Positions 42,001-45,000 of a stretch of DNA of 64,000 nucleotides are shown here, piece after piece (the stretch's first letter is position 1; each line of letters starts with the position of its first letter). The position numbers are program-made. The DNA is from an uncultured Gemmatimonadales bacterium (GTDB lineage: Bacteria; Gemmatimonadota; Gemmatimonadetes; Gemmatimonadales; GWC2-71-9). Location: positions 352,001 to 416,000 of the forward strand of contig CAWHFW010000002.1 of the NCBI GenBank assembly GCA_963828735.1, in the 5' to 3' direction.

Positions 42001-45000
42001 GCGCTGACACGAACCGGCGCCGGCGTGCCACCGAGCCAGAGACCGAGATCGAGGATCGAGAGCCCGAGGTCCAGCATGGCGCCGCCACCGGCCTGATCCC
42101 GGCGCTGGCGCCAGCCGAGCTGGTTGCGACTCGGACGGAAGACGTGCCAGCTGCCGCGCACGCTCTCCACGCGGCCGAGCTCGCCGCTCTGCACGAAGCT
42201 CCGGACGATCTGGACGTCGGGGCGGTACCGATGATTCATGCCGACCAGCAGCACGCGGTCGCGCTTCTCGGCCGCACGCATGATGCGTTGGACGCTCGCC
42301 GCCGACATCGCGAGCGGCTTCTCGACCAGGATGTGCACGTTGGCCGACAGCGCCGCCAGAATGTGGGACTCGTGCAGATGATTGGGCGAGCAGATCACCA
42401 CCGCCTCGAGACCCGGCGTGCGGAGCAGGTCTTCGATGTCGTCCAGCGCGTCGGGCACGCCGAACCGGTTGGCGAGCGCGCGCGCCTTGGGCGCATCAAG
42501 GTCGCAGATCGCCTGCACCTCGACGGATTTGAGCTTCTTGAGCGTGGGCAGGTGAGCCACCTGCGCGATGGCGCCCCCGCCGATGATCCCGACCCTGAGG
42601 CGCTCGCTCCCGCTCCGGCTCGCCGTCATGTGGTGTCCCCCTTCAGTAGAGACGCTCGAGCACCGCGCCCGGATAGTACGCGGCGAGGATGCGCTCGTGG
42701 TCCTGTCCCGAGCGCGAGCGGCCGACCGCGCCCCATTGGCAAAACCCCACGCCGTGCCCCGCGCCGGCCCCATCCGCGACCAGGCGGGTGACCCGTCCGC
42801 CGTCCCGCGTGACGGTCAGCGTGAATGTGTTGCTCCGAAGCAGCTCGCCCGATGGCGGCCGCAGGACCCGGCGGACGTTCGGTCCGTCCACGAGCACGTC
42901 ACCGCGTCGAAGGCCGACGGTGAGTTGGCCGACGCGCCCCGAGCGGGTCAGGTAGGAGACCCGCACGTCCCGGATCTCGCTCAGGTCCGAAGCCACCGCC
43001 GTCGACCCACCGCCGGCCGGGAGCGCGGGCAGCGTACGCTGCAGCGTCGCGCGCAGCTCCGGCCCGCTCCACTCCTCGTGCCAGCGGAAGCGTGGCGACA
43101 GACTGCAGTAGGCCGTGCCGTCGTCCGCCGCGTCGGACACGGAGCGCAGGTAGGGGCGGTCGGCGCCGCGAAACACCTCGGTGCCGTCGGCGGTGCGCCC
43201 ACCACAGGTGGAATAGAAAAAGGCGTCGATCGGCGCCCCACCGTAGGTGAGGATTCGTCCCCGGGTGGCGTCCACCGCCGCGCGCCCTTCGGGGGTCTCG
43301 GTTGCAGCGCCTCCGTATACCTGATCGGCCACGGTCGCGTAGAGATCGAAGCCCAGCGCCTGCCAGCGTCGCAGATTCCGCAGGGCGAACGTGCGCGAGA
43401 CGATCGCCTGTGCGCGGAGCGCCTCCTGCTCACCCGGGCTCCGGCGCCCCATCTCCGCGCTCACCACCCCGACGAGGTAGGACTCCATCGGAAGCCGGTC
43501 CACCACGGTTACCCCGGTCCGATCGCGCAGCGCCACGATGGTGCCCCGGTAGGGGCGTCCGTTCACGAGCACCGGCGCGTTGGGACTCGGTGAGCCGATC
43601 TCGAGCACGTCGGTCGGCGCGCTCGCGGCGCCGCCAGGCGACAGCACCACCACGCCGGTACCGTTCACCGCCACCCGCCACGTTTCGCCGGTCGGGATCT
43701 CCGCAAGCCGCGCGCCGGACGGGTCGCTCACGCTGAGCCCTGCCGTGCCCGACACCGAGGCCGCCGTCGCGCCGACCATGAGTCCGACGCGTATCGTCGG
43801 CTCGGTCGGGCCCTCGGCGGGAGGTCCGGGCGCCGCCGGTGTCGGCGGTGCCTCGGGCACCGACACCGGGGTTGGCGCGGGAGGCGCGGCCGCCGGGCTG
43901 CAACTCGCGATCACGACAGCCGCCAGCGCCGCGGAGGAGAGGCCCACGACGCTCCAGCATTGCAGCCGGGCGCGGACGTCCCCGCCCTCAGCCGCGGTAG
44001 TTGCCAAACTTGAGCTCGATGCCGAAATCCTGGCCCCGGAGGAAGGCGATAATGGCCTGGAGCTCGTCCCGTGAAGGGCTGGAGACCCGAATCTCATCGC
44101 CCTGGATCGTGGCCTGCGCCTTCTTGAAACCGCCGTCCTTGACGGCCTTGATGATCCGCTTGGCCGCGTCCTGCGGGATGCCCTGGGTCAGCTTGACCGT
44201 CCGGCGGACCGATTGGCCGGTGGCGGCGATCAGCTCCCCCACGTCCAGATTTTTCACGGGGACGCCGCGCTTGATCATGCGCCCCTGGAGAACGTCCACC
44301 AGTGCGTCCATTCGGAATTCGTCGTCGGCCGCGAGTCGAATCTCGGCCTTGGGGCGATCGAACTCGACGGTGCAGTGCGTGCCCTTGAAGTCATAGCGCT
44401 GGGCGATCTCCTTCAGCGCCTGATTGACGGCGTTGTCGACTTCCTGCAGGTCGGCGCCCGTCGATACGTCGAACGAAGGATTGCTGGCCATGGAGTGGTG
44501 GCGCGAGGGTGGAAGACAGGTCGGTGTCGGCGGATGCGGGAAGGATTACCCGGGGCCCCGCGCTTGACAACCCTTTCGGCCGTCACTAGTCTCACGCTCA
44601 CGGCGGCCGACTTAAGGCCACTTGCTCCCGCCGGTGCCTCGGATGGTCCGGGACACGAACAAACAAGCTAAAGCGCCGGATGCACGCCCTCCGAGCGCAC
44701 CTGGCCGGGGGGCGTCGTGTTTGGCCCCCAGACACACGAGAATTCCATGCGGCCTCGCGCGAGCTGCTGTCGAATGATGCCCTACTGCCCCTGTCCGGGG
44801 TGGACGGCGTCATCGGCGCATGCGCGTGGAAGCGGCGGGGTCTAACCTCCGCAACCCGGCACCCCGAGGCCCGGACCACTCACTGAGCGGTCCGGGCCTC
44901 ATCGTTTTCCTACACTCGAGGAGCGCAGCATGTCTCTCCAGCCCGAAACGCTGGCCATTCACGCCGGGCAGGTGCCGGACCCGGCCACCAACGCGCGCGC

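Follow-up and report, generated by a model that had tools for sequence, protein, structure and literature searches.

A predicted SAM-II-type riboswitch and Cys/Met-codon attenuator in series before metY in a family of Gemmatimonadales

How is transcription of metY, the gene of an O-acetylhomoserine/O-acetylserine sulfhydrylase family protein through which sulfur enters methionine in soil Gemmatimonadota, controlled in a Gemmatimonadales bacterium? A preliminary description of the locus had proposed two layers, namely a SAM-type riboswitch and, between it and metY, an unannotated leader ORF with an intrinsic terminator responding to cysteine and methionine supply. A second Cys attenuator was placed before the cysH operon. 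These proposals were followed up in the window, i.e. the whole stretch of 64,000 nucleotides analysed (G000:C2:352001-416000), in the rest of the genome and in its relatives.

Anatomy of the metY leader and its operon

The genome has a GC content of 68.9%, and the closest named relatives of its MetY (81-90% identity) come from Gemmatimonadales/Gemmatimonadota MAGs. At the locus, a divergent yajQ is followed by metY and by aspartate-kinase-like, beta-carbonic-anhydrase-like, and metX-like genes. Read from the sequence, the leader runs from a promoter-like site through an aptamer, the terminator-like hairpin T1, a Cys/Met-rich ORF, and the terminator T2 to metY:

44564..44592, + strand: predicted sigma70-like promoter, TTGACA-17-TAGTCT, read from the sequence
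44600..44679, + strand: SAM-II-type aptamer variant with P1 (44602-44606/44628-44632), UUGC, an extra hairpin in L3 (44634-44656), GCUAAA, and pseudoknot P2, from alignment and model R2
44685..44724, + strand: terminator-like hairpin T1 (hairpin 44685-44714, -21.0 kcal/mol) with interrupted U tail, putative expression platform of the riboswitch, from folding
44747..44845, + strand: leader ORF of 32 codons with predicted start; cluster C7 C8 R M10 M11 P Y C14 P C16 at 44765-44794, from translation
44797..44807, + strand: segment 2 with a GGGUGG core, predicted to pair with the Cys-codon segment (protector) or with the left arm and loop of T2 (antiterminator)
44866..44910, + strand: terminator T2, hairpin 44866-44900 and tail 44901-44910, from folding
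44930..46258, + strand: metY, O-acetylhomoserine/O-acetylserine sulfhydrylase family (TIGR01326, 656.8 bits, cut-off 495.1)
46255..47325, + strand: aspartate-kinase-like gene overlapping the metY stop (E 7e-54, under curated cut-offs)
47309..47823, + strand: beta-carbonic-anhydrase-like gene, in two frames in the assembly with a break near 47412 (PF00484 on the 3' part)
47820..48854, + strand: metX-like homoserine O-acetyltransferase gene (E 1e-93, under curated cut-offs)

The TIGR01326 score confirms the downstream gene as metY. The leader ORF and its terminator lie between riboswitch and metY as described, and the two-layer arrangement was recovered as two terminators in series, each with a putative sensor of its own, behind one promoter-like site. 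The promoter motif is found with the same spacing upstream of 55 of 59 family metY loci; a strict promoter scan of the window returned none at the metY leader, and the -10 element matches at 3 of 6 positions only.

These 59 metY upstream regions represent as many genomes and 15 genera of the family. They comprise 19 of the 20 closest loci (L010, whose contig starts inside the gene, was dropped) and 40 of 45 relatives' matches (G026, already included, as well as G246, the truncated G342, G062, and G265 were left out). L011, from the unpublished genome G003, is part of the counts and stands outside alignment A2. The genomes are kin, so that locus counts are not independent. By script, aptamer, leader, and T2 were found together in 47 loci, the leader only in eight, the aptamer only in two, and neither in two. 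One leader-only locus (L008) is cut by the contig end. Of the two aptamer-only loci, that of G268 is truly so and that of G093 has a leader with an earlier stop; of the two with neither, G136 is a true case and in G108 the script missed the leader. The aptamer is absent from G027 and from five genomes of g32, and five genomes of one genus carry a leaderless leader only, without riboswitch. The chosen leader start follows the aptamer end by 41-104 nt.

The earlier count of 27 Cys-rich leaders in 30 relatives' loci was not reproduced as such; in our set, 47 of 49 aptamer-bearing loci have leader and T2, and 46 of 49 have at least two Cys within 11 codons. MetY was found in 46 of 301 family genomes at the search threshold. 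All five extra family loci outside the models have the leader; the aptamer was recognised by pattern in four of them and by R2 in the remaining one. A 15-mer search of the 301 genomes with one mismatch performed no better than its reversed control and was discarded.

The SAM-II-type aptamer and its putative expression platform

Rfam reported no riboswitch in the window, neither at the gathering score nor at E<=10. A search of the genome with RF00521 did not list the metY aptamer, and at gathering RF00521 matched none of 15 aptamer-bearing family loci. Rfam misses this aptamer because a variable hairpin is inserted in L3. Its silence was rejected as proof that no riboswitch exists after alignment and after construction of model R2, which was built solely from family metY aptamers.

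The core of the metY aptamer agrees with SAM-II in P1, UUU in L1, UUGC, and GCUAAA. Within the family, the SAM-contact motif UUU is present in 48 of 49 aptamers, and UUG and CUAAA in all that were parsed. In the available part of PMC3303485, roles in SAM-II are assigned to U10, U11, U12, U20, U21, U44, A45, and A46. The equivalents of U20 U21 G22 and of U44 A45 A46 A47 are invariant in alignment A2, an invariance partly imposed by the selection pattern. Across 45 distinct aptamers, 94.4% of 855 cells are paired: P1 to 95% (with 11 misses, all at a single pair and probably due to a shifted alignment), P2a to 100%, and P2b to 95.6%. Two-sided changes occur at three of four pairs in the pseudoknot helix P2b and at all five pairs of the inserted hairpin; P1, P2a, and the U-A pairs are invariant and yield no covariation. 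None of 500 shuffles reached this pairing level, a figure that is no probability, the sequences being related. The L3 insertion is a hairpin of variable sequence and 5-12 bp throughout the family aptamers.

Model R2 matched 38 of 151 phylum genomes. Twelve of its weaker matches were checked: ten belong to Rfam SAM_alpha, and the other two, ahead of metH-like genes, represent the hairpin variant. Judged from translations, the hairpin type precedes metH-like (L250, L251) and aspartate-kinase-like (L235) genes. The genome itself also encodes two SAM-II RNAs of canonical form, one ahead of a thrC-like gene and the other of a metH-like gene. The SAM-type riboswitch of the preliminary description is real and lies at 44600-44679; its class, left unnamed there, is SAM-II-type as judged from sequence, in a variant with an extra hairpin, and it would be expected to bind SAM.

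T1 follows the aptamer in 49 of 49 aptamer-bearing family loci. In folding, its left arm pairs with the free 3' strand of the aptamer, with a mean sequestration of 0.78 compared to 0.33 when the pseudoknot strands are masked, and the free value exceeds the masked one in 42 of 49 loci. No promoter-like motif was seen between aptamer and leader in any of 47 loci.

The window copy departs from this pattern. It carries C44611 at the U10-equivalent position and is the sole copy of 49 without the L1 UUU; the C is also present in an independent contig from run X1 (561-base match). Two-layer control is therefore better supported for the family than for the window copy. The sequestration of its T1 arm shows no differential (0.87 versus 0.87), and the arm of its extra hairpin can, in folding, pair with T1 irrespective of SAM. 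It is conceivable, though we hold it to be doubtful, that the tandem works in the family and the window riboswitch has decayed, with constitutive read-through at T1 and the leader as the sole working control. According to the available part of PMC3303485, U10 of SAM-II pairs with U44, which holds the adenine of SAM. The SAM-independent pairing of hairpin arm and T1 is the minimum-energy fold of the truncated window RNA (-38.7 versus -36.6), and the outright losses in G027 and g32 also fit such a decay. Against it, all other core positions are kept, the R2 score of 74.5 bits lies inside the range of the relatives, A44665 reads G in contigs of three other sequencing runs (X1, X10, and X19), and the extra hairpin is transcribed, and able to fold, ahead of T1.

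Leader ORF, terminator T2 and putative sister attenuators

The product of the leader ORF (44747-44845) is MRPRASCCRMMPYCPCPGWTASSAHARGSGGV, followed by the stop codon. T2 behind it is a 12-bp hairpin; the segment 44860-44912 folds with -32.4 kcal/mol (z -6.55), which none of 200 shuffles equalled. Its U tail is interrupted in the window (ATCGTTTTCC), and a strict terminator scan of the window did not list it. Tails with at least five U in 10 nt were found at 50 of 55 loci. From the end of T2 to the metY SD the gap is about 18 nt.

In 55 leaders, the Cys/Met cluster holds 187 Cys and 92 Met in 634 codons (29.5% and 14.5%), compared to 0.7% and 1.6% in long genes genome-wide. UGU accounts for 124 of 231 leader Cys codons versus 14.5% genome-wide. 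With the frame set by the Met-Cys or Cys-Cys motif alone (five T2 loci lack the motif), 51 of 53 loci have their first Cys-frame stop at a distance of 15-45 nt ahead of T2; the shifted frames give 10 and 8. The Cys count per frame was rejected as a frame test, as AUG-UGU repeats yield Cys in shifted frames too. All three stop codons are in use (29 TAG, 16 TAA, and 10 TGA). The frame in which segment 2 is read differs between genera, and all three occur; the stop position is kept and the peptide tail is not. A genome scan blind to amino acid identity, run with crude gene calls, gave 75 intergenic sites with a short ORF plus terminator, and the metY leader ranked first.

The leader would be translated and the ribosome would stall on it. 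A ribosome footprint was moved along 54 leaders and the sequestration of the T2 arm computed. With the A site in the Cys/Met cluster (offsets -16 to -5), sequestration of the arm was 0.60-0.81, with a peak at -9 to -5; from -3 on it was at most 0.26. The window profile peaks at codons 12-14. Part of this fall is trivial, since every extension of the mask removes partners. Since the T2 arm is still sequestered without a ribosome (mean 0.56), super-attenuation is not cleanly predicted. In most loci it is this GGGUGG-type segment that pairs with the T2 arm and loop, 81-84% paired compared to 35-56% in slid registers. In these GC-rich genomes the antiterminator duplex stood out only weakly from dinucleotide shuffles, with a median z of -0.9, 9 of 55 below -1.64 and the window at +0.5. 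The own T2 arm beats arms of foreign genera in only 31 of 55 cases, and a partner shuffle with one sequence per genus gave 414 of 5000. In AT-rich Ignavibacteria, six of seven leaders have an antiterminator z below -1.64; among all 26 distant rows it is ten.

At the conserved offsets, Cys occurs more often than any other residue (38 of 53 at -12 and 42 of 54 at -6), four of 55 leaders have no Met in the cluster, and the cysH and sulfurtransferase leaders described below carry Cys runs. A leader that senses cysteine only, with Met codons as by-products of AUG/UG-rich pairing or as alternative starts, would account for these observations. We nevertheless consider it rather unlikely, given the enrichment of Met in the cluster over the genome (14.5% versus 1.6%), its placement at an offset of the antitermination peak (27 of 53 at -9), and its excess over Cys in distant metY leaders (75 Met versus 65 Cys), where MMM runs occur in AT-rich and GC-rich genomes alike. 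The Met codons of metY leaders thus look regulatory besides Cys. Met starvation could also block initiation of the leader.

Least probable by a good way is a reading in which T2 is a fixed terminator and the region before it either a conserved RNA structure that is not translated or the gene of a small, Cys-rich (metal- or redox-binding) peptide: the ORF does fold as a long hairpin (z -2.3), leader SD pairing reaches -4 kcal/mol or lower in just 33 of 47 leaders even with the best start chosen, and the leader RNA occurs in two RNA libraries whose contigs (runs X15 and X19) span the leader, carry no ends, strand or level, and are not interpretable in this respect, but the stop is fixed relative to T2 in the Cys frame only, the C-terminal peptide switches frame among genera, the ATG lies 5-7 nt past the -10 motif in leader-only and cysH loci, and a fixed T2 would silence metY, which has no other promoter-like site. 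With the best start chosen, median SD pairing of the leaders is -6.4 kcal/mol, compared to -7.6 for metY and a background median of -2.6; that of the window leader (-3.0 kcal/mol) is about at background level.

Related leaders are present elsewhere in the genome. Tied second in the scan were the cysH leader, a sulfurtransferase leader, and a probable small Cys-rich protein.

C5:1754299-1754192, - strand: 35-codon ORF with ACCCM before cysH-cysI-cysG-like genes
C5:1692519-1692587: Cys/Met leader before a rhodanese-type sulfurtransferase gene, from the genome scan

For cysH, the preliminary description had placed Cys ORF and terminator together within C5:1754192-1754299. The ORF is there; the terminator lies just outside, at about C5:1754162-1754139. 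cysH was found in 70 of 103 genus genomes, of which the best 30 loci were examined (two from the unpublished G392 and G003). In these best 30 of 70, the ATG follows the -10 motif by 5-7 nt (leaderless), two to four tandem Cys codons, nearly all UGU, are present in every case, and the terminator was found in 29 by pattern and in the 30th with one substitution. The earlier figure of 14 out of 14 cysH loci was not reproduced as such, and 30 of 30 in our own set (best 30 of 70) takes its place. Folding of the cysH leaders is little specific: the arm is sequestered to about 0.7 over the Cys run, 0 at the stop, and about 0.6 well upstream. Inspection of 17 relatives from the genus (one of them, G003, unpublished) showed the sulfurtransferase leader in 15, and it was seen in one of seven others. 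Both the cysH and the sulfurtransferase leaders are Cys-dominated. A Leu/Val/Ile-rich leader with terminator precedes leuA. Thr/Ile-, Trp-, and His-rich ORFs from the scan were rejected as opposite-strand artefacts or because they do not precede fitting genes. The site at C6:75557 looks like a small Cys-rich protein.

Two probable checkpoints in series, their spread and their relation to known systems

The leader RNA is a real, conserved, modular element, observed in its sequence anatomy, conservation, covariation, and constraint on frame and stop. From these features we infer termination at T1 and T2 and the gate logic, and consider it likely that the metY operon is controlled across the family by a SAM-II switch that turns it off and, behind it, by an attenuator of the trp type that responds to Cys and probably to Met. 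The metY-aspK-(CA)-metX operon would pass two transcription checkpoints in series. With SAM bound, the 3' strand of the aptamer would stay in the pseudoknot and T1 would form; without SAM, the strand would pair with the left arm of T1 and RNA polymerase would read through. A ribosome stalled on the Cys/Met codons would then cover segment 1, leaving segment 2 to pair with the left arm of T2, again with read-through, while a ribosome at the leader stop would cover segment 2 and let T2 form. Output of metY would be expected only at low SAM and with a shortage of charged tRNA-Cys or tRNA-Met. The cysH-cysI-cysG operon and the sulfurtransferase gene would be controlled in the same way by Cys-run leaders without riboswitch.

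The gene content is compatible with such a gate. No cysE scored above cut-off in the genome (TIGR01172; genome 97.5% complete), and cysK, a CBS-domain cystathionine beta-synthase-like protein, cystathionine lyase/synthase-like proteins, and ahcY are present; MetY therefore plausibly feeds both Met and Cys. As we infer for the physiology, homocysteine from MetY can then supply both Met/SAM and Cys; this agrees with a gate open solely at low SAM combined with a shortage of Met or Cys.

Among 35 metY loci from other Gemmatimonadota families, SAM-II together with a Met/Cys leader was found in five, the leader only in five, SAM-II only in ten, and neither in 15. Two of the five tandems contain Rfam SAM_alpha over the cut-off and three rest on pattern. 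Further tandems are L093 (Rfam-grade) and L080 and L081 (pattern-grade). The reverse order, a leader (e.g. CCCCMMM) plus terminator and then an Rfam SAM-I, was found in five of 14 Ignavibacteria/Bacteroidota loci among 80 loci (L095, L100, L107, L120, and L132; antiterminator z -0.9 to -3.9). L124 carries a pair of leaders and a pair of terminators; of the remainder, four have SAM-I only and in four nothing was seen (two of them outside the Rfam scan). In two Acidobacteriota and a single gammaproteobacterial MAG (terminator found by script), metY has a leader but no riboswitch; by inspection only, such leaders also occur in Chloroflexota and Acidimicrobiia. In a quick unrooted tree of 87 MetY proteins, a Gemmatimonadota clade (support 86) and an Ignavibacteria clade are split by a branch with support 100. 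Given this split and the different aptamer class and order, separate assembly of the SAM-II-leader and leader-SAM-I tandems is the simpler reading of the sequences; the leader itself may be old and shared between the clades.

The single parts are of known kinds. SAM-II (RF00521 SAM_alpha; Corbino et al., PMC1273637, available part) has the same P1, pseudoknot, and GAUUU/UUGC/GCUAAA core, a promoter just before P1, a terminator after P2, and genes of Met/SAM synthesis downstream; the metY aptamer differs by its L3 hairpin of 5-12 bp and by the predicted second, ribosome-read checkpoint. The trp, his, thr, leu, ilv, and phe attenuators likewise have a short ORF rich in the product amino acid, a protector/antiterminator/terminator geometry, and a stop at a fixed distance before the terminator, whereas the metY leader uses Cys and Met codons in series with a riboswitch. 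As far as the available part of PMC3766115 goes, Rfam leader families exist only for His, Leu, Thr, and Trp, with Ile/Val and Phe outside Rfam.

Mycobacterial polycysteine leaderless sORFs (10.1101/834739; PMC1262725) and the Rhodobacterales cysS element uORFC-8-2 (PMC8632094) likewise combine Cys runs and leaderless starts with sulfur genes as targets, among them one for a sulfurtransferase. In mycobacteria, the case that was tested works at translation initiation, without intrinsic terminator; this type, with pairing over the downstream SD, is not matched here, as the U-tailed T2 ends about 18 nt before the metY SD. uORFC-8-2 has a terminator; the element itself, for cysS, is only a prediction. 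In the accessible parts of these sources, none of the Cys leaders is joined to a riboswitch or has Met codons. SAM-I/T-box(Met) tandems before metX and metY (Sherlock et al., PMC9481103) are also on when SAM is low and tRNA-Met uncharged; there, a T-box with direct tRNA binding serves as the second sensor (nine examples), whereas the metY leader would use a translating ribosome, sense Cys as well, and combine with SAM-II or, reversed, with SAM-I. The same survey predicts 44 tandem SAM-II cases, and the terms uORF, attenuat-, and leader peptide do not occur in its available part. The mgtA leader with its uORF mgtL (PMC11552253, available part) likewise contains a uORF within a leader once called a riboswitch; it represents one switch for one signal (Mg2+) with Rho-dependent termination and unsettled direct RNA sensing, in contrast to the two separate modules and two terminators before metY.

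A literature search, with subscription papers mostly outside it and supplements excluded, returned no riboswitch in series with a leader-peptide attenuator. Met-codon attenuators in bacteria and the leaders of this Gemmatimonadales family were likewise not found in it (subscription papers again mostly outside). A 2010 account of attenuation across bacteria by Lopatovskaya, Seliverstov and Lyubetsky reportedly may include predicted Cys or Met leaders. Neither the combination nor its two apparent origins nor Met sensing was found in print. We lean, by a little, toward the broader view that Met/Cys-codon leader attenuators are an unrecognised, widespread control of metY, including Met sensing via internal AUG, which became joined to SAM riboswitches at least twice independently in a gate whose opening requires low SAM together with a shortage of Met or Cys.

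Catalogued tandem RNA gates consist of aptamers, T-boxes, and ribozymes; a riboswitch with a ribosome-read attenuator would add a building principle, and two separate assemblies suggest selection for gate logic on the sulfur entry step. Classical attenuation would come to include methionine, which is also required for initiation of the leader, and the sensing of cysteine through a terminator, and a SAM-II variant missed by Rfam is brought to light. The natural series of loci with both elements, the leader only, the riboswitch only, two SAM-II, or two leaders makes the logic testable in reporters.

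Upstream regions of metY and related genes in other genomes

Visual inspection of the regions upstream of metY in the Gemmatimonadaceae loci L022, L085, L118, and L122 showed an additional SAM-II-like fold 5' of the canonical SAM-II; this extra fold carries a hairpin insert and a terminator of its own. The same inspection showed no leader ORF at these four loci. SAM-II variants with a hairpin insert were also located upstream of metH-like genes in two other families (L250 and L251), where GUCUAAA replaces GCUAAA, and upstream of an aspartate-kinase-like gene (L235). At locus L176 of the relative genome G136, a hairpin resembling T2, the predicted terminator between leader ORF and metY, lies almost directly 3' of the promoter; aptamer and leader are both missing.

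In Ignavibacteria/Bacteroidota MAGs, the tandem upstream of metY occurs in reverse order (L095, L100, L107, L120, and L132), with a Met/Cys leader and terminator followed by a SAM-I riboswitch. A serial arrangement was found in a Melioribacter MAG, in whose metY upstream region a search for a riboswitch revealed none:

L124:1064-1400, two Met/Cys leader ORFs in series, one terminator each

Other short ORFs with terminators in the source genome

Further short ORFs with terminators were found on contigs C5 and C6:

C5:1692519-1692587, plus strand, third Cys/Met leader ORF and terminator, upstream of a rhodanese-type sulfurtransferase gene
C5:284987-284886, minus strand, Leu/Val/Ile-rich leader ORF and terminator, upstream of leuA
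C6 about 75,450-75,560, plus strand, short Cys-rich ORF and terminator

By inspection, the sulfurtransferase leader is kept in 15 of 17 genus relatives. The leuA leader is a predicted classical attenuator in Gemmatimonadota, and the ORF on C6 looks more like a metallothionein-type peptide than a leader.

Contig context and genes linked to MetY

C2 about 13,600 and 46,400, minus strand, two 16S rRNA genes
window 4506-4576, plus strand, tRNA gene
window 47309-47823, plus strand, beta-carbonic-anhydrase-like gene within the met operon
C4:272651-273929, minus strand, second MetY paralogue (52% identical), in two pieces in the assembly

The tRNA gene was the sole Rfam match in the 64-kb window. The two 16S rRNA genes on contig C2 are only 82% identical to each other, which suggests foreign sequence near the contig end; this region is approximately 350 kb away from the metY leader locus. 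The beta-carbonic-anhydrase-like gene carries a frameshift near 47412 in assembly GCA_963828735.1, reflecting either an assembly error or a pseudogene. Some beta-carbonic-anhydrase relatives hydrolyse carbonyl sulfide to H2S. If the product of this gene did so, the resulting H2S would supply MetY.
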